From a bacterium (GTDB lineage Bacteria > Patescibacteriota > Minisyncoccia > Moranbacterales > UBA2206): a stretch of DNA of 64,000 bases. The translations under genes were made by a program, and so were the position numbers. Below, piece by piece: positions 3,626-24,448 of the stretch. The notes under the pieces were generated by a model. It was not told where the DNA came from and searched no databases. It saw only the letters and a list, made by a program, of their open reading frames with translations. The stretch covers positions 1,471 through 65,470 of the forward strand of contig JAYSLY010000007.1 in the NCBI GenBank assembly GCA_043725085.1, read 5' to 3'. Positions within the stretch are counted from its first letter, which is position 1. Each line of letters begins with the position of its first letter.

Positions 3626-4393
3626 ATGTTTATAGATCAGCTCCAAAAATTCGGCCTCACAAAAACCCAATCTGCTGTGCTGGATTGTCTGTTTGAACAT
3701 GGAGAAACCAAGGCCAGTGATGTGGCGAAAATCGCCAATCACCCTCGTGGAGTGGCCTACAAGGCTCTCGAGGAACTTCTAGCGTTTAACTTGGTGGAAA
3801 AAATCGAGAAAGAAAAAGAAGTGGCCAAATGGCGCGCCACCCATCCGCGTAATCTGGAAAAAATTTTGGAAAATAAAGAAGCCGAGCTCAGTCAAAACAA
3901 AAAAACGTTTGAAGACACGTTGCCCAGTCTCATTTCCAGCTACAACATTACACTCAATAAACCGGGCGTGAAATTCTATGAAGGCGCGGACGGAATGGAA
4001 AAAATTTTGGATGACACACTCAAAAGCCAAACGGAAATCTTGCTCTTCATCAACACCAATTCACTTGAAGCGGAGAGCTCCTTCAAGGAAATCAATGCGG
4101 AGTATAAGCGCAAGAGAAAATTCAAGGGTTTGAGAAAAAGAATTATCCGCACGGGAAAAAAGCCGGAAATAACTTTCGGAATATCTGATGATAAATATGA
4201 CGCGGTGACGGAAATCCGTTATTTGGAAAAAAATCTTTCCGCTTTCAAATCCAGCGTGCAAATTTATGACGGAAAAATTTCCTACCAAATTTTTGACCAA
4301 GGCAATGTCATTTCCATTCTGATTGAGGACAAAAATATCTATGAAATGAACAAGGCTTGGTTTGAGACGCTTTGGGAAATGGCGACTACATAA
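3626..4393 (+). CDS. TrmB-family HTH transcriptional regulator
   Basis: N-terminal LTKTQSAVLDCLFEHGETKASDVAKIANHPRGVAYKALEELL winged-HTH. C-terminal ...WFETLWEMA. Paralog of 8533-9267. Confidence 0.55.
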   Translation: MFIDQLQKFGLTKTQSAVLDCLFEHGETKASDVAKIANHPRGVAYKALEELLAFNLVEKIEKEKEVAKWRATHPRNLEKILENKEAELSQNKKTFEDTLPSLISSYNITLNKPGVKFYEGADGMEKILDDTLKSQTEILLFINTNSLEAESSFKEINAEYKRKRKFKGLRKRIIRTGKKPEITFGISDDKYDAVTEIRYLEKNLSAFKSSVQIYDGKISYQIFDQGNVISILIEDKNIYEMNKAWFETLWEMATT

Positions 4394-4443: not shown

Positions 4444-7170
4444 ATGCCAGACACCAAGACCCAAAAACTAATTCTCATCGACGGCAATGCGATTATTCAT
4501 CGTTCCTATCACGCTCTCCCGCCGTTCACGACCAAAAAAGGCGAGCTGGTCAACGCTGTCTATGGCTTTGCTTCAACGGTGATTTCAATCATTGCCAAGT
4601 TTGAACCGGAATATATTATTGCAACTTTTGATCTCGCCGGGCCGACATTTCGTCATTTGGATTATGCCCAGTATAAGGCGACACGCGTCAAAGCCGATGA
4701 TGCGCTCTATGCGCAGATTCCTCGCGTCAAAGAAGTGGTGCGCGCTTTTGGTATTCCGATTTGCGAGGCCTCCGGTTTTGAAGCGGACGATGTGATTGGC
4801 ACGCTCGTCAAGAAAGTGGAAGAAAATAATCCTGAGTTGGAAATTATTATTGTAACGGGCGACATGGACACCTTGCAATTGGTGAGCGAAAAAACGAAAG
4901 TCTACACAATGCGCCGAGGGCTCACCGATTCCGCGCTCTATGGCAAAGCGGAAATATTTGAACGCTATTCGCTCGCACCGGAACAATTGATTGATTATAA
5001 GGGTCTGCGCGGTGATCCGTCGGACAACATTCCCGGCGTGAAAGGAATTGGCGAGAAAACCGCGATTGAACTTCTCAAAACCTATGGCACATTGGAAAAT
5101 GTTTATGCCCATTTAGGTGAGATTAAAAAAACATTGCAAGAAAAATTAGAGCACGATCGGATGATGGCTAAAAAAAGCAAAGAGCTCGCCACCATCTCGC
5201 GTGAGGCGCCGGTGGAGCTGGAGCTGGAAAAAGCCGTCACAAAAGATTATGACAAGCCAACACTTTTGGCTCTTTTTGACGAATTAAATTTCCACTCTCT
5301 CAAAAGAAGATTAGGACAGACGGAAAAAAATAATAGTGATCGCGATAAAAAAAATACTCCCAAAATTGATTCTGATGGGGTGAAAGATTTTAAATTTGAA
5401 ATTGCCGATGAAAAAAACAGTACGGAAATTTTGGAAGCAATTTCTGCGTCAAATGAAATTGCCATCAAATTGAAAACAGCCGGTGAGGCTAAGGAAAACA
5501 TAACGCTCCTTGGCGTGGCAGTTGCCTATAAAACCGGTCGCGTCGCCTATTTCGACCGCAATGACGCCGTTTTTGCCAAGCTAAAAACCATCCTGGAAGA
5601 TTCGCGAATTGCAAAGATCGGCTATGATTTGAAAAGTGATTTGAAAATTCTGTGGAAAAATGAAATAAATTTGACTGGCACATGTTTTGATATTCTCATT
5701 AGCAGCTATCTTTTGAACCCCGGTCGAAAAACCACCCTCCCTGAATTAGTCGCAGAATATCTAAACGAGGAACTTGCCGACGAGGCAAGAAAAGGTCAGT
5801 TGGGATTGGAAATTGAATCACTCGAAGAGATGGTTCAAAAAATTTCCGCCGTAGCTGACTATATTTTCAAACTGAAAAAAATCCACCAAACAGAAATCGA
5901 AAAAATCAGCGAAGCACAAATCAGGAATAATAATGAAAGCAAAAACACGCTTCGAGAGGTTTTTGCCAAACTGGAAATGCCGCTTGTGCCGGTCCTTGCC
6001 AAAATGGAAACTTTTGGAATCAAACTTGATACATTGATTTTCAGAGGAATTTCCAAAACGATCAGCGAACGAATTAAAAAACTAGAACAATCAATTTATA
6101 GCCTAAGCGGAGAAACTTTTAACATTGCCTCGCCCAAGCAACTGGCTAAAGTTTTGTTTGAAAAAATGCACATTCCCTCTGATGGAATTAAAAAAGGCAA
6201 GTCCGGCGTCATCTCCACCGCCTCAGCTGAGCTTGAAAAATTGAAAAATGAACACAAAATCGTGGAAAAAATTGAAGAGTTTCGCGAAATAACCAAGTTG
6301 AAAAATACCTATCTCGACACATTGCCGGAAATGGTCGACAAAGATTCTCGCCTCCACACCACGTTTAATCAAGCTATCGCTGCCACCGGCCGCCTTTCTT
6401 CATCTGATCCGAATTTGCAAAATATTCCCATTCGCACGGAACTCGGCCAACTCCTCCGTGTGGCTTTTGTCGCGCGTGGCGGCTGGAAACTGGTCAGCGC
6501 CGATTATTCCCAAATTGATTTGCGTGTCGTCGCTCATGTCAGTGGCGACAAAAAAATGATTGAACTGTTTGGCGCCGGCGAAGACATTCATCGCGCCACC
6601 GCCGCGGAGATTAACAAAATTCCCCTCTCGCAAGTTTCGCAAAAAATCCGGCGCACCGCCAAAGAACTCAATTTTGGCGTGATCTATGGCATGGGCACAT
6701 TCGGTTTTGCCTCACGCACCGGCATCTCCAGAGAAGACGCCAAAAAATTCATCGATGCCTATTTTGAACGCTTTCAAGGCGTGGCGAGCTATATGCAAAA
6801 AACCAAAGAATTTGCCAGAGAAAAAGGCTACGTCGAAACGGAAATCGGACGGCGAAGATATATCCCGGAAATTAATTCGCCCAATTTTCAAGTGCAAAGC
6901 GGCGCCGAACGAATGGCAATCAATATGCCGATTCAAGGTTTGTCATCAGACATCATGAAAATTGCCATGCTGCGAATCGACGAAGCGTTTGGAGCCGACT
7001 CGGAAGTGAAGATGCTCCTTCAAATCCATGACGAGATCATTTTGGAAGTCAAAGAAGAGCGCGCGAAAGTTGTGGCCGAAAAAATTAAAACCATTCTTGA
7101 GGATGCCTACACTTTGCGCGTCCCACTCGTCGCCAATGTGGAAATTGGAGATAATTGGGGGGAGATTTAG
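4444..7170 (+). CDS. polA: DNA polymerase I
   Basis: 908 aa. 5'-3' exonuclease N-terminus. Polymerase motifs RRTAKELNFGVIYGMGTFGFA and QIHDEIILEV. The central 3'-5' exo-like region lacks the canonical acidic motifs. Confidence 0.9.
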   Translation: MPDTKTQKLILIDGNAIIHRSYHALPPFTTKKGELVNAVYGFASTVISIIAKFEPEYIIATFDLAGPTFRHLDYAQYKATRVKADDALYAQIPRVKEVVRAFGIPICEASGFEADDVIGTLVKKVEENNPELEIIIVTGDMDTLQLVSEKTKVYTMRRGLTDSALYGKAEIFERYSLAPEQLIDYKGLRGDPSDNIPGVKGIGEKTAIELLKTYGTLENVYAHLGEIKKTLQEKLEHDRMMAKKSKELATISREAPVELELEKAVTKDYDKPTLLALFDELNFHSLKRRLGQTEKNNSDRDKKNTPKIDSDGVKDFKFEIADEKNSTEILEAISASNEIAIKLKTAGEAKENITLLGVAVAYKTGRVAYFDRNDAVFAKLKTILEDSRIAKIGYDLKSDLKILWKNEINLTGTCFDILISSYLLNPGRKTTLPELVAEYLNEELADEARKGQLGLEIESLEEMVQKISAVADYIFKLKKIHQTEIEKISEAQIRNNNESKNTLREVFAKLEMPLVPVLAKMETFGIKLDTLIFRGISKTISERIKKLEQSIYSLSGETFNIASPKQLAKVLFEKMHIPSDGIKKGKSGVISTASAELEKLKNEHKIVEKIEEFREITKLKNTYLDTLPEMVDKDSRLHTTFNQAIAATGRLSSSDPNLQNIPIRTELGQLLRVAFVARGGWKLVSADYSQIDLRVVAHVSGDKKMIELFGAGEDIHRATAAEINKIPLSQVSQKIRRTAKELNFGVIYGMGTFGFASRTGISREDAKKFIDAYFERFQGVASYMQKTKEFAREKGYVETEIGRRRYIPEINSPNFQVQSGAERMAINMPIQGLSSDIMKIAMLRIDEAFGADSEVKMLLQIHDEIILEVKEERAKVVAEKIKTILEDAYTLRVPLVANVEIGDNWGEI

Positions 7171-7299: not shown

Positions 7300-7599
7300 T
7301 TATCCTTCAAATTTTATTCCAAGATGAAAGATTCCCGCTTTTCCTGATTTTTGTTTTTCTATAAAAGTCACATAACCTTTCTTGATTTCATAGTTCCCCT
7401 TGGAAAGATTTACATTCTTTTTTAGAAAATAGAAGTGTCCCTCGTTTTTTTCGCAATATAATGATACTGATGGTTCTCTTGAATAGCCATCTTCAGAAAA
7501 TGGTTCAAAGCCGCCGAGCGCTTGCATAATAAAATGCGGTAAATGGCAAAATTGGGTAAATTGCCAATTTTCGGTAGCTGAACCAAAACTGATCCACAT
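7300..7599 (-). CDS. hypothetical protein (99 aa); may be the 3' part of a frameshifted gene that starts at 7769
   Basis: Overlaps 7422-7769 by 178 nt in another frame. Its sequence (WQFTQFCHLPHFIMQALGGFEPFSEDGY...) looks more globular than the overlapping tail. Confidence 0.35.
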   Translation of the reverse strand: MWISFGSATENWQFTQFCHLPHFIMQALGGFEPFSEDGYSREPSVSLYCEKNEGHFYFLKKNVNLSKGNYEIKKGYVTFIEKQKSGKAGIFHLGIKFEG

Positions 7600-7769
7600 A
7601 GAGATCCGTCATCCCCGATTTCAAGCTGACCAATTGCAGGATTGTCAAGATAAGCACAGGACAAAGTACCACAGACTTCGCTTTTATAAAAATCGGTTAG
7701 GGTAGTTCCCACAAAGCCGCTCAGATCAGCTGTTTGAAACACCACTCTTATCAAGTTGATTATTTTCAT
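7422..7769 (-). CDS. small hypothetical protein downstream of conserved 32-nt leader, copy 1 (possibly frameshifted into 7300-7599)
   Basis: aaggaga RBS then ATG at 7769. MKIINLIRVVFQTADLSGFVG... Confidence 0.4.
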   Translation of the reverse strand: MKIINLIRVVFQTADLSGFVGTTLTDFYKSEVCGTLSCAYLDNPAIGQLEIGDDGSLCGSVLVQLPKIGNLPNFAIYRILLCKRSAALNHFLKMAIQENHQYHYIAKKTRDTSIF

Positions 7770-7802
7770 ATCATTTCTCCTTTTTCAAAGTACCGTTTTT
7801 TT

Positions 7803-7834
7803 GTCTCCCCGAGAAACCGTTTTCTCAGCTTGAC
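7803..7834 (-). promoter_or_regulatory. conserved 32-nt leader/operator motif, copy 1
   Basis: Minus-strand reading: GTCAAGCTGAGAAAACGGTTTCTCGGGGAGAC. Contains the near-palindrome GAGAAAACGGTTTCTC. Identical to 8365-8396. Lies about 35 nt upstream of the ATG, followed by a shared cttt(g/a)aaaaaggagaa RBS region. Confidence 0.6.
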
Positions 7835-7938
7835 AATTTTTCCTCCATCTCAAGCCTCAAAACAATTCTGAAACTTGGGAAAAGGAGGCGAGCCGGATGC
7901 GATGATCATTGGTGGCTCGCCTTGAGACAAAGAATAAA

Positions 7939-8331
7939 TTAAGGAAAGATTTTGTACTTCTGATCAAACTTATGCGCAGCGTCAAGAAATCTTTTTTGTT
8001 CGCAGGATAATTCTTCATATCCAGAATCAAAGATTGATGATTTATCACGTTTTGTTTCTTCAAACCCCTTGAAATTAAAGGGATCCCCTTGCACTGTATA
8101 ACCTTCTTCTGTTATGACAAACATCCACAACGATTGAGATTTGTACAAAACACTGGATCCCGGGTCAAAAAGTTTAACTTTAACTTTTCGCCCTTCAGGA
8201 AGATCGTGATGTGAACCATTGGACACAAGCTCCTGACCCACAAATAATTCAAGTCCATTAAATCTTACTTTTAATAGACCGAAGCCTTCCTTTGACCTTT
8301 CGATTTCTTCAAAAGTATTTATTTCTTTCAT
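7939..8331 (-). CDS. small hypothetical protein (130 aa) downstream of conserved leader, copy 2
   Basis: aaaggagaa RBS then ATG at 8331. MKEINTFEEIERSKEGFGLLKV... No recognised domain. Confidence 0.5.
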   Translation of the reverse strand: MKEINTFEEIERSKEGFGLLKVRFNGLELFVGQELVSNGSHHDLPEGRKVKVKLFDPGSSVLYKSQSLWMFVITEEGYTVQGDPFNFKGFEETKRDKSSIFDSGYEELSCEQKRFLDAAHKFDQKYKIFP

Positions 8332-8364
8332 TTTCTATTCTCCTTTTTAAAGAACATTGTTTTC

Positions 8365-8396
8365 GTCTCCCCGAGAAACCGTTTTCTCAGCTTGAC
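8365..8396 (-). promoter_or_regulatory. conserved 32-nt leader/operator motif, copy 2
   Basis: Identical 32-mer to 7803-7834. Sits in the divergent region shared with the TrmB-like gene at 8533. Confidence 0.6.
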
Positions 8397-8449
8397 CCAA
8401 GAGTATAGCAGGTAAATTGTGTTTTGTCAACAGCAATCTTACGACAATA

Positions 8450-8478
8450 TTGACATCAGTCGAAAACTGCGCTATAAT
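8450..8478 (+). promoter_or_regulatory. sigma70-like promoter for the TrmB-like gene
   Basis: TTGACA (8450-8455), 17-nt spacer, TATAAT (8473-8478). Confidence 0.5.
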
Positions 8479-8532
8479 AGAGCCATAATAGTGGCTTTTA
8501 TCTACGATCGTAAGCCATAAACTGACAAAAAT

Positions 8533-9267
8533 ATGGAGCAAGAATTATCCCAACTCGGCCTCACACCCAACGAAATCAAGGTTTATCTCGTACTTTTGGA
8601 ATTGGGCGAAAATACGGTGGGACCACTGATCAAGAAACTCGGGATGCACCGCCAAGTCGCCTATGATGCGCTCGAAGGCCTCAAAGAGAGAAATATGGTG
8701 CTTAGTTCCACCAAAAACAACCGCCTGATCTTTCGCATCGCCAACCCGCAAAATATCCTGGACAATATTGAACAACAAAAAATGGTGGCCAATAATCTGA
8801 TGGGTGAAATCAATGACCGCTTGGCCGGACAGAAAAAGGGCCAAGAAATCCGGGTCTATGAAGGCGAAAAAGCCTATCGTGATTTCATCCGCCGGAGAAA
8901 TGACTTGCAACCGCCCAATACGACATACATGGTTATGAGCGGAATGAGTTTGATATATAAAGATATGATGACCAAAGGCAGAATCTATGAACGGATCAAT
9001 CGCATTCGCAAAAAAAACAATATCAACACAAAAATTTTGATGAATGACGCCCATAGAAATGAAGCGGAAAAACTTCAGCGCGTCAACTCAGAGATTCGCT
9101 TTCTGCCGGAAGGCTTCAATTCCCCCACTTCATTTGACATCTGGCATGATTCCATCTCGCTCATCTCACACGCCAACGGCGTCTTCTGCATCGAGATCAA
9201 GAACGACGATTTTCACCGGTCCTATTTGACCTATTTTGAGTTGCTTTGGCAGATGGCGAAAAAATAG
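8533..9267 (+). CDS. TrmB-family HTH transcriptional regulator
   Basis: LTPNEIKVYLVLLELGENTVGPLIKKLGMHRQVAYDALEGL wHTH. Ends ...YFELLWQMAKK. Its last 49 nt are duplicated at 10599-10647. Confidence 0.55.
   Translation: MEQELSQLGLTPNEIKVYLVLLELGENTVGPLIKKLGMHRQVAYDALEGLKERNMVLSSTKNNRLIFRIANPQNILDNIEQQKMVANNLMGEINDRLAGQKKGQEIRVYEGEKAYRDFIRRRNDLQPPNTTYMVMSGMSLIYKDMMTKGRIYERINRIRKKNNINTKILMNDAHRNEAEKLQRVNSEIRFLPEGFNSPTSFDIWHDSISLISHANGVFCIEIKNDDFHRSYLTYFELLWQMAKK
9219..9267 (+). repeat. direct repeat DR1 (49 bp), which is the 3' end of the TrmB-like gene
   Basis: gtcctatttgacctattttgagttgctttggcagatggcgaaaaaatag. Repeated with one mismatch at 10599-10647. Confidence 0.8.
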
Positions 9268-9337: not shown

Positions 9338-10033
9338 ATGAACGAAACTCAACTAACCAACTACATCAAAGAATTCGGCATCGCGCGCGACCAGATTTTG
9401 CGCGAAGAAGCGGAGATGGAAATTTTATCCGAACTTTCCAAAAGCAAATTAAGCGCGAACTTGGTTTTTTATGGCGGAACGGCTTTGCGATTAGCTTATG
9501 GCTCCCCGCGCTTTTCCGAAGACCTTGATTTATTGGTGATAAAAAAAATTAGTTTTGCCGAATTTAAAAACTTTACCGCAAGTTTAATTAAAAATCACAC
9601 AAATTGGACACTGAAAGATCTCAAAGATAAGCGCCGGATGATATTCGCTCTGGTTAGTATTAATGATGAAAAATTAAAGCATGCGTTTTCCGTCAAAATC
9701 GAAGTACACAAGCCTGAGCGCAAACCAAAATTAGAAACTGAACTAGCACTCGTCAAAAGCCCACTAAGCATCGCCGAGCCATTACTTTTAGTTCCAACAC
9801 TTACGGAACTAAAACGACTGAAAGAATCTGCCTTGGCCGGAAGAAAAAAAGGTCGCGATATTTTTGACCTTTGGTATATCGCCAAAGCTCTGCGTGAAAA
9901 TTTCATTCTGCCAAAAAATTTACCAAAATATGGAAAAAAAGAATTTCAAAATGAACTGCAAGTATTTTTGCCAAAAAAATACTACCCGGTCATAACTCAA
10001 CTCTATGAACAATTTGGAAATAAAACTAAATAG
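9338..10033 (+). CDS. AbiEii/AbiGii-family nucleotidyltransferase toxin
   Basis: 231 aa. LVFYGGTALRLAYGSPRFSEDLDLLV nucleotidyltransferase signature. Confidence 0.7.
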   Translation: MNETQLTNYIKEFGIARDQILREEAEMEILSELSKSKLSANLVFYGGTALRLAYGSPRFSEDLDLLVIKKISFAEFKNFTASLIKNHTNWTLKDLKDKRRMIFALVSINDEKLKHAFSVKIEVHKPERKPKLETELALVKSPLSIAEPLLLVPTLTELKRLKESALAGRKKGRDIFDLWYIAKALRENFILPKNLPKYGKKEFQNELQVFLPKKYYPVITQLYEQFGNKTK

Positions 10034-10577
10034 AATCCCTAAAAGCTATTTTTCTTTTGCCGATGCCAGAAAAGTCGCCCGGTTGGATGATGCAAGTCTC
10101 CGTGTGGCAATCAGCCGCTTAGTTAAGGCTGGAAAAATAATCTCGCTAACCAAGGGCTATTATTGCCAAGATTTGGCCAAGCTAGATTTTCCCAGGCTAG
10201 CGCTGGAAATTTATGCGCCAAGTTATTTGTCCTTTGAATGGGTGCTTGGGCAAACCGGTATTTTGAGCCAAAAATCCTATGCCTTGACACTTGCAACCGC
10301 AAAACGCGCTCGTCAAATTGAAATCGCCGGCACAACTTTGATCTATCGCCATTTGCAAACAGATTTATTTTTTGGATATGAAATCAAAGATGGCTACCTA
10401 ATTGCGCAGCCGGAAAAAGCTTTTTTAGATCTCGCCTATCTGTCTCTCAACGGCTACGCGAAATTTGATGCGGAAGAAATGAACTTGACGCTACTTGATG
10501 AAAATAAAATAAAAAACTACTTGAAAAAGTTTGGGAGTAAACGATTGAATACATTGATAAACAACTTATTTGCATAG
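10005..10577 (+). CDS. AbiEi-family antitoxin, placed after the toxin (inverted order)
   Basis: 190 aa. LRVAISRLVKAGKIISLTKGYYC and LEIYAPSYLSFEWVLGQTGIL mirror 252-872. Overlaps AbiEii by 29 nt. Confidence 0.65.
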   Translation: MNNLEIKLNRIPKSYFSFADARKVARLDDASLRVAISRLVKAGKIISLTKGYYCQDLAKLDFPRLALEIYAPSYLSFEWVLGQTGILSQKSYALTLATAKRARQIEIAGTTLIYRHLQTDLFFGYEIKDGYLIAQPEKAFLDLAYLSLNGYAKFDAEEMNLTLLDENKIKNYLKKFGSKRLNTLINNLFA

Positions 10578-24181: not shown

Positions 24182-24391
24182 TAATAATCTGCAGGCAAAA
24201 ATCTCGAACTAGGAGCCCAAGAAAAGAAACAAAATCGAGGTATAGCGCAGATAATTTACTAAGAGCAAATTACCCACCCTACCCATATCTTGAAAGAAGT
24301 TTCCCATATTGATGACAAAAGATAGAAGCCACCAATTGCCTGCAATTTACTGCTTGCCAATGCCAATATATTAAAAAACATAAAAACACTG

Positions 24392-24425
24392 ACTCCCAAA
24401 TTTAGCACATCTTGGGAGTTTTGTC
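24392..24425 (+). terminator. rho-independent terminator after the PilB fusion
   Basis: actcccaa-12 nt-ttgggagt followed by tttt. Confidence 0.5.
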
Positions 24426-24448
24426 AAATAGGTGTATAATAGTGCTAT

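Follow-up and report, generated by a model that had tools for sequence, protein, structure and literature searches.

Why do two unrelated small genes carry the same 32-nucleotide (nt) sequence in their leaders, and what kind of element is it? This question is raised by a stretch of 64,000 nt (hereafter the window) from contig JAYSLY010000007.1 of GenBank assembly GCA_043725085.1, a member of Moranbacterales (ultra-small bacteria of the Patescibacteriota), in which the sequence GTCAAGCTGAGAAAACGGTTTCTCGGGGAGAC occurs exactly twice, at 7803-7834 (-) and 8365-8396 (-), each time ahead of a gene here referred to as a cargo gene. Almost nothing is known about gene regulation in Patescibacteria, or Candidate Phyla Radiation (CPR) bacteria (PMC11665869). 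In this work, the repeat is characterized as a candidate new leader-RNA motif of Moranbacteria/Parcubacteria, an element whose kind is familiar and whose present example is undescribed. The two leaders and their genes, with copies numbered after the genes that they precede, are composed as follows:

8365-8396, minus strand: hairpin copy 2, in promoter context; by its exact match, fold, covariation and position 5 nt after a -10 box, the predicted first 32 nt of the gene-2 mRNA
8332-8364, minus strand: leader tail of copy 2, made of an A-rich linker, UUCUUU, AAAAAGGAGAA (Shine-Dalgarno, SD), 7 nt and AUG
7939-8331, minus strand: cargo gene 2, 130 amino acids (aa), with no Pfam or NCBIfam family
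7803-7834, minus strand: hairpin copy 1, in the post-terminator ('T') context; identical in sequence to copy 2, in the leader of gene 1
7770-7802, minus strand: leader tail of copy 1, of the same design and matching the copy-2 tail at 22/33 positions in register
7300-7769, minus strand: cargo gene 1, ~157 aa, an orphan whose sequence is divided between two frames (7422-7769 and 7300-7599)

An initial annotation of this region had reported an identical motif before two small genes, similar ribosome-binding regions behind both copies and dissimilar downstream proteins, and all three observations were borne out. The matches are exact, the start codons (ATG at 7769 and 8331) lie 33 nt downstream of the respective 32-mer ends, each copy is followed by an A-run, CTTT and AAAAAGGAGAA, and the best BLASTP match between the coding regions has E = 2.9. 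The identity between copies stops at the edges of the 32-mer (32/32 inside, with differing upstream flanks), and the leader tails are alike without being identical. Since the identity is limited to 32 nt and the coding regions are unrelated, a larger segmental duplication that includes the genes, the origin that the annotation had considered, does not apply. A search of the 64-kb window returned the two copies only, with no third copy at up to 3 mismatches (0 expected in 100 shuffles), and a covariance-model scan of the whole window with filters off scored both copies at 48.3 bits, the next-best match reaching 11.6 bits.

For comparison, we used the contigs of the two gene-2 homologues (L001 and L002), L003, seven metagenome loci retrieved through the TrmB-like protein encoded next to copy 2, and further contigs of TrmB-like homologues. 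L003, from a metagenome-assembled genome of Candidatus Moraniibacteriota, was the one contig found when 185,579 species genomes, a collection that does not include the source genome of the window, were scanned with a degenerate form of the motif; a scan of viral contigs gave 0 matches. The motif occurs once or twice per related locus, always in a gene array beside the TrmB-like gene, and in two recurrent contexts: 5 nt after the -10 box of a divergent promoter, or just behind an intergenic block (T-block) that separates successive genes.

In the gene-sense RNA, the 32-mer folds as GUC/AAG/CUGAGAAA-ACGG-UUUCUCGG/GGA/GAC; the outer stem has 3 bp, the internal loop is symmetric (3x3) and made of purines, and the 8-bp inner stem is capped by a tetraloop. 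The minimum free energy (MFE) is -12.2 kcal/mol for copy 2 (+1..+36; z = -3.4). The embedded hairpin of the initial annotation is real, although longer than noted there, as the outer GUC/GAC stem and the internal loop are added around CUGAGAAA/UUUCUCGG. The general fold across 14 distinct variants from Moranbacteria/Parcubacteria contigs is GUC / AAR / 6-8 bp stem / NNGG loop / GGA / GAC. A hand alignment of these 14 variants contains 144 pair cells, 141 of them standard (120 Watson-Crick and 21 G·U); of the other three, 2 are A·C. The G·U cells are spread over 8 pair positions and the A·C cells over 2. In a model-based alignment of the 11 distinct close variants, 93.6% of the cells pair and 5/10 pairs are changed on both sides; these values were reached in 2-7 of 500 shuffles and the covariation score in 2 of 500, and pairing fell to 43-60% when the partner was slid by 1-3 columns. 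An independent RNAalifold run on whole leaders recovered the same hairpin, with compensatory changes at 7/10 pairs, so that the two analyses place such changes at 5-7 of 10 pairs.

Where one genome holds two copies (L003a/b and L006a/b), the differences between them are changes of U-A to C-G, of U·G to C-G and of G-C to G·U, the first of these being found between L003a and L003b, and the outer stem covaries as well (G-C to A-U in L002). In 14/16 variants, the sense strand gives the more stable fold of the two strands. Structure, rather than stem sequence, appears to be under selection, given the 93.6-97.9% of standard pairs and the unrelated hairpins found at the same place in L014 and L020. 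Furthermore, an excess of 21 G·U over 2 A·C indicates a constraint on the gene-sense RNA and not on a DNA palindrome, as a protein reading a double-stranded palindrome would give no such strand asymmetry. Thus, among the options raised initially, it is the cis-regulatory RNA element that finds support, in compensatory and G·U changes that are seen on the transcribed strand specifically, and we consider it highly probable that selection acts on an RNA hairpin within the cargo transcripts.

The position of the hairpin in these transcripts is defined by the following neighbouring elements:

8402-8430, minus strand: sigma-70-type promoter TTGACA-17-(TG)cTATACT, 11/12 consensus with an extended -10, driving the hairpin, leader and gene 2
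8450-8478, plus strand: divergent promoter TTGACA-17-TATAAT of the TrmB-like gene, 12/12 consensus
7842-7921, minus strand: T-block between the cargo genes, made of a terminator-like stem (7887-7921) followed by a 47-nt hairpin (7842-7888) that takes up the U-tract

Copy 2 begins 5 nt past the -10 box of a promoter that stands back-to-back with that of the TrmB-like gene. This 5-nt gap between the -10 box and the hairpin (or hairpin-bearing leader) is kept in 13 contexts, namely the window, L001, L002, L003, L006, L008, L009, L011, L012, L017, L014, L020 and L027, and the first hairpin base is a purine in every promoter-context case. As the outer stem covaries, it must be transcribed; together with the fixed spacing and the purine at position 1, this leads us to infer that transcription starts at the first paired base. 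Hairpin copy 2 is accordingly predicted to form the 5' end of the gene-2 mRNA, with +1 at G8396.

Our preferred interpretation, which we put forward tentatively, as plausible rather than probable, is that the 5'-leader hairpin forms part of a portable expression module and stabilises mRNA against 5'-end-dependent decay. The module would consist of promoter, hairpin, A-rich linker and SD, and would drive any cargo gene placed beside the TrmBL2-like regulator in Moranbacteria/Parcubacteria. With a hairpin at the predicted +1, the transcript would lack a single-stranded 5' end, and such a terminal hairpin may shield the mRNA from RppH-type pyrophosphohydrolase and from RNase J or RNase E entry, resulting in a high expression level. 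It has been reviewed that 5'-terminal stem-loops stabilise the ompA, papA and aprE mRNAs, and that the RppH of Bacillus subtilis requires at least 2 unpaired 5' nucleotides (review PMC3997798). Like those stem-loops, the present element is a predicted +1 hairpin with no unpaired 5' nucleotide that lies upstream of a strong SD, is portable, and conserves structure over stem sequence; unlike them, it has a purine 3x3 internal loop, a terminal loop ending in GG, internal copies behind a terminator-like stem and a restriction to one locus, and it bears no sequence relation to them, stabilisation being proposed here by analogy. Another type of 5' stabiliser, STAB-SD, is an SD-like sequence near the 5' end, e.g., that of Bacillus thuringiensis cryIIIA. 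The element resembles it in carrying GGGGAG/GGAG in its 3' half, ~30 nt upstream of the true SD, in 11/14 variants, and differs from it in that its GGAG is partly paired, and is absent in L009b, L012 and L017.

The modularity of the arrangement is evident from the genes that it precedes. Hairpin and leader stand before at least 8 unrelated cargo families, including the gene-2 family, a family of 170-230 aa, orphans, and SLOG/LOG-like, methyltransferase and receiver-like genes. Moreover, L014 and L020 carry a hairpin of unrelated sequence at the same +1 place, and the sequence has also changed completely in L024; that distant loci keep some hairpin at +1 whatever its sequence fits a structural role.

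Copy 1 lies 7 nt after the 47-nt hairpin of the T-block and has no recognisable promoter, a conserved sigma-70 promoter having been looked for in the T-block and not found. This T context recurs at L003 4078 and L006 787. The 47-nt hairpin is CCTCCTTTTCCCAAGTTTCAAAATTGTTTTGAGGCTTGAGATGGAGG, and the terminator-like stem that precedes it has a variable loop. The 47-mer is identical at 46-47 of 47 positions among genomes whose TrmB-like proteins share only 65-77% identity; it is nearly identical in L003 (two copies), L006 and L007, and its L009 and L027 variants show compensatory changes. According to the stabilisation reading, read-through transcripts would be cut in or near the ~20-bp hairpin of the T-block, and copy 1 would then protect the downstream message, the cut itself being inferred. 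More generally, the T-block could be a processing site, given a duplex of roughly the length suited to RNase III, or could offer a patch of homology through which cassettes are shuffled. It parts successive cargo genes with or without a 32-nt hairpin behind it, and further examples were located in the related loci:

L003 3985-4070 and 4845-4927; L006 ~827-915; L007 ~3715-3800; L009 ~5038-5125; L027 ~2610-2700: T-blocks

Intercistronic hairpin repeats are known as repetitive extragenic palindromic sequences and bacterial interspersed mosaic elements (REP/BIME). Like them, the T-block is a structured repeat of high conservation that separates genes within one transcription unit; unlike them, it occurs in this locus only, shows no sequence similarity to them, is joined to a terminator-like stem and is followed by a leader. 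A blastn search of T-block and hairpin against phages and plasmids gave no match. A mini open reading frame over the junction of T-block and hairpin (ATGGAGGAAAAATTGTCAAGCTGA) was considered and rejected, as its frame and length are not conserved in L003b, L006b and L002. The possibility that the 32-nt hairpin itself is an intrinsic terminator or attenuator was likewise rejected, an A-run following it in nearly all variants and a terminator scan not having called it.

Several observations weigh against end protection. The +1 position is taken from nothing but the promoter geometry. Copies in the T context (window 7803, L003b and L006b) lie within a presumed read-through transcript without a recognisable promoter, and 5'-end protection there therefore needs the presumed processing step. 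The hairpin is absent at some junctions and homologous loci (L002, L003 4881, L007 and L025/L026), the hairpin-less T-block junctions (L002, L003 4881 and L007) retaining the rest of the leader. The element is also confined to one locus and is not used by other strong promoters; in the window, most other consensus promoters are without such a 5' hairpin. Finally, conservation in the close family is higher at the unpaired bases (A4, A5, the loop GG, G28 and A29) than in the stems. A mere protective hairpin needs no conserved unpaired bases, and their conservation hints at a specific reader.

In L025 (~3830-3850, -) and L026 (~2760-2780, -), loci of 61% identity, the hairpin is replaced by the short perfect palindromes TTACGTAA and TTGCGCAA, respectively, weak structures of 4 bp; the symmetric change between the two fits either a tiny hairpin or a pair of DNA half-sites.

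Conserved unpaired bases, together with the confinement to this locus, make a specific RNA-binding reader a serious rival. According to this explanation, which we regard as possible though on the doubtful side, the hairpin would be an RNA operator that docks a sequence-specific RNA-binding protein or other trans factor controlling cargo translation or decay, with the purine loop and the loop GG as recognition surface. In 11-12 close variants, the loop bases vary hardly or not at all, against changes at 7/11 pair positions; the internal loop is purine-only even in the distant variants L012 and L017 (GAA/AAA and AGG/AAA), and the window copies are 32/32 identical despite their differing flanks; in addition, the coexistence of promoter-proximal and internal (T) contexts is better tolerated by a binding site than by end protection. 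However, the only constant candidate binder nearby is the TrmB-like DNA-binding protein, the loop sequences are lost in L012, L017, L014 and L020, and no curated RNA family matches; as the close variants come from related genomes, loop conservation may partly reflect shared ancestry. The terminal loop, ACGG in the window, reads CGG, UGG, AGGG, AUGG or AUGGA in other variants. For a comparison with CsrA-type sites, which combine a GGA in a hairpin loop with another at the SD, GGA is found in the 3' internal loop in 11/14 variants and in the SD, and as terminal loop only in L006.

The explanation favoured in the initial annotation was a DNA operator bound by the regulator that is encoded divergently from gene 2:

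8533-9267, plus strand: TrmB-like regulator (Pfam PF01978, E = 6e-13; AlphaFold2 model with a mean predicted local distance difference test score, pLDDT, of 91)

The architecture of this protein is of TrmBL2 type, with a winged helix-turn-helix, a coiled coil and a C-terminal PLD/NucT-like domain, and without a sugar-binding subdomain; its best full-length PDB matches are TrmBL2 (5bpi/5bpd, 6e-13) and TrmB (3qph), and NucT for the C-terminal domain. The TrmBL2 type has been described as an archaeal chromatin protein. TrmB-like homologues are common in Parcubacteria, with two paralogues on some contigs (L011 and L009). Operators of the TrmB family are exemplified by the Thermococcales glycolytic motif (TGM), the palindrome TATCAC-N5-GTGATA, and the hairpin shares with them a palindrome that overlaps a promoter and adjoins a gene for a TrmB-family winged helix-turn-helix protein.

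As an operator, the imperfect 32-bp palindrome, which spans the predicted start of transcription, would be bound by the TrmB-like regulator, repressing the cargo promoter. The link to the TrmB-like locus is real: the motif occurs only in arrays beside this regulator, overlaps the +1 of the divergent promoter, and begins with GTCAA, which resembles TGTCAA/TTGACA of the promoter core; moreover, proteins of TrmBL2 type, to which the present one is assigned by fold match only, are multimeric DNA binders. Nevertheless, the recognition helix H39 R40 Q41 V42. Y44 D45 A46 L47 (HRQV.YDAL) is invariant in homologues from 100% to 50% identity, and over that range the hairpin arms vary freely or are replaced altogether (L014 and L020), so that no half-site tracking the DNA-reading helix was found. 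Neither are the departures from palindromy on one strand (the G·U and A·C counts given above) explained by recognition of double-stranded DNA; the conserved bases (TCAA ... GG ... GGAG) are asymmetric, and the T-context copies have no promoter to regulate.

Conversely, better-conserved DNA lies upstream of the hairpin, in the promoter core. This bidirectional core, TGTCAA-n3-TTGTC(G/A)-n12-TTGACAA, is conserved down to 50% regulator identity and reads TGTCAA-n3-TTGTCG-n12-TTGACAA in the window (8402-8449 with 8450-8478); it contains back-to-back -35 boxes 20 nt apart with TTGTC(G/A)TAA between them, and the spacer of the regulator's own promoter is conserved too. An invariant helix, a changing hairpin sequence and conserved DNA in the promoter core together indicate that the hairpin is probably not the operator, and we consider a DNA operator role for it quite unlikely. 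The promoter core (8400-8480 region) is the more likely operator of the regulator and, as judged from its conservation, likely autoregulatory; the regulator would probably act there, and the hairpin most likely protects or tunes cargo mRNAs rather than serving as the regulator's DNA site.

The initial annotation had also named a cassette-recombination site. In its present form this explanation takes the hairpin as a crossover point and the two direct copies flanking gene 2 and the T-block as the footprint of an insertion. The identical 32-nt direct repeats indeed bracket a gene-plus-T-block unit of 530 nt, and at junctions that are homologous in other respects the hairpin is either there or cleanly missing. 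The position and order of the cargo genes also vary from genome to genome: gene 2 lies next to the promoter in the window and L001 and comes second in L002, a further gene (gene X) is first in L002 and stands behind the T-block in L003, and the gene-1 relative is promoter-proximal in L011. The locus is thus a cassette-like array of swappable genes. Nevertheless, we regard the hairpin as a very unlikely crossover site. No integrase, recombinase or Y1 transposase was found among the called neighbours of the related loci, the unrelated IS110/DDE genes of L014 and L020 being the only mobile-element genes there, and no integron integrase or tyrosine recombinase was called within the fetched flanks (which hold PolA, the TrmB-like protein, AbiE, HepT/MNT, the DUF4143 ATPase and Fpg). 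The element precedes genes and is part of the transcribed leader, repeats of ~70-90 nt (leader and T-block) would be enough for ordinary homologous recombination, and the strand-specific conservation of G·U pairs and the exact +1 placement point to RNA.

Integron attC arrays and clusters of attC sites lacking integron integrases (CALIN) offer the closest parallel for the array as a whole, with small, mostly orphan and promoter-less genes behind one strong promoter, repeated structured separators and a content that differs between close relatives. They differ from it in that the array has no IntI gene and no R/L boxes, the 32-nt element is 5' of genes and in the leader, and the inter-gene repeat is instead the T-block, which looks like a terminator plus a hairpin. 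The element itself was rejected as an attC site on account of its length (32 nt vs 57-141 bp), the lack of a GTTRRRY box and its 5' instead of 3' placement.

A broader reading, which we hold to be unlikely, is that hairpin and T-block are the punctuation of an undescribed integrase-less CPR cassette array, in which one TrmBL2-like regulator and strong promoter would express orphan cargo that is rapidly exchanged (SLOG-like, receiver-like, methyltransferase and many genes of unknown kind); here the hairpin would act as an RNA operator with sequence specificity, or else as a signal for processing and recombination, read by a dedicated factor and copied before new cassettes.

The last alternative is a very small riboswitch aptamer whose internal loop would serve as ligand pocket and control the downstream SD region. 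The internal loop is conserved within a covarying stem 33 nt before the start codon, and the ACGG loop of the window recalls guanidine-II hairpins; in addition, the MFE fold of the copy-2 leader contains a weak SD-sequestering CUUU/AAGG helix. This helix, however, is unsupported by the alignment fold, and the cargo genes are functionally unrelated and mostly orphans, unlike riboswitch regulons. Guanidine-II (mini-ykkC) was rejected because the ACGR loop is not conserved and the second hairpin is missing; there is no Rfam match to it either. An anti-SD/SD switch pairing the 3' arm (UUUCUC) with GGAGAA was rejected too, the arm not being SD-complementary in L008, L014, L017 and L020 and no alternative helix being supported.

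Searches of the window region and related loci against Rfam 15 returned no family at gathering threshold, nor did a permissive search (E <= 10) return any beyond chance level. The best match was RF03084 (DUF2815 RNA), for which 20.0-20.1 bits (E about 0.9) fall short of the gathering threshold of 41.2. The unpaired GGGUAGAC ... AAAAAGGA ... AUG framework of this model can be aligned with both copies, but the hairpin of the model is skipped in the alignment and the downstream genes are unrelated to DUF2815; membership was rejected given this chance-level score (20 bits vs 41.2). A riboswitch is the explanation that we find extremely improbable.

Taken as a whole, the locus is a compact and delimited expression module that combines a bidirectional promoter close to consensus, a TrmBL2-like regulator, a 5' hairpin with covarying pairs and a strong SD, and evolution has reused this module before many unrelated genes. 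Should the hairpin prove to stabilise mRNA or to recruit a factor, it could go directly into the expression tools now under construction for these organisms; it is also a candidate new RNA family. A conserved leader hairpin alone is a familiar type of element, and the cassette-like array and the T-block are more unusual than the hairpin; the variable cargo array constitutes a gene-exchange hotspot whose products may matter for the epibiotic lifestyle.

With regard to the cargo genes themselves, gene 2 has only two homologues among 5.8 billion proteins. The homologue search for gene 1 returned only itself, and its sole relative is a split gene in L011 (4614-5050, -), which is broken at a different place from the gene-1 frame break near 7560-7600; the split of gene 1 could reflect decay, assembly errors or a recoding site.

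The locus lies within a variable island between polA and fpg that also carries AbiEii/AbiEi and HepT/MNT toxin-antitoxin pairs and a DUF4143 AAA ATPase, the latter being inserted between the promoter core and the TrmB-like gene in several genomes. Stretches of this island are:

9338-10577, plus strand: window
L001 3729-4356; L011 3839-4466; L002 2287-3417; L003 1435-2571: related loci

Elsewhere in the window, at 24386-24427 (-), GTCAG... and a hairpin of high stability (z = -4.5) come 5 nt behind a consensus-like promoter, TTGACA-17-TAAATT. That strand carries no gene downstream, the site being intergenic between a pilus ATPase gene and ruvB, and this look-alike is probably due to chance.

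In L011, two leaders, at 5075-5165 (-) and ~8640-8740 (-), share a block composed of aaggcNcggtcc, a variable hairpin and gatggtcgNgagctacactggctg. At 5075-5165 the 32-nt hairpin lies upstream of this extra structured block, and the block at ~8640-8740 precedes the second TrmB paralogue. The block has no Rfam match and may represent another uncatalogued leader RNA.

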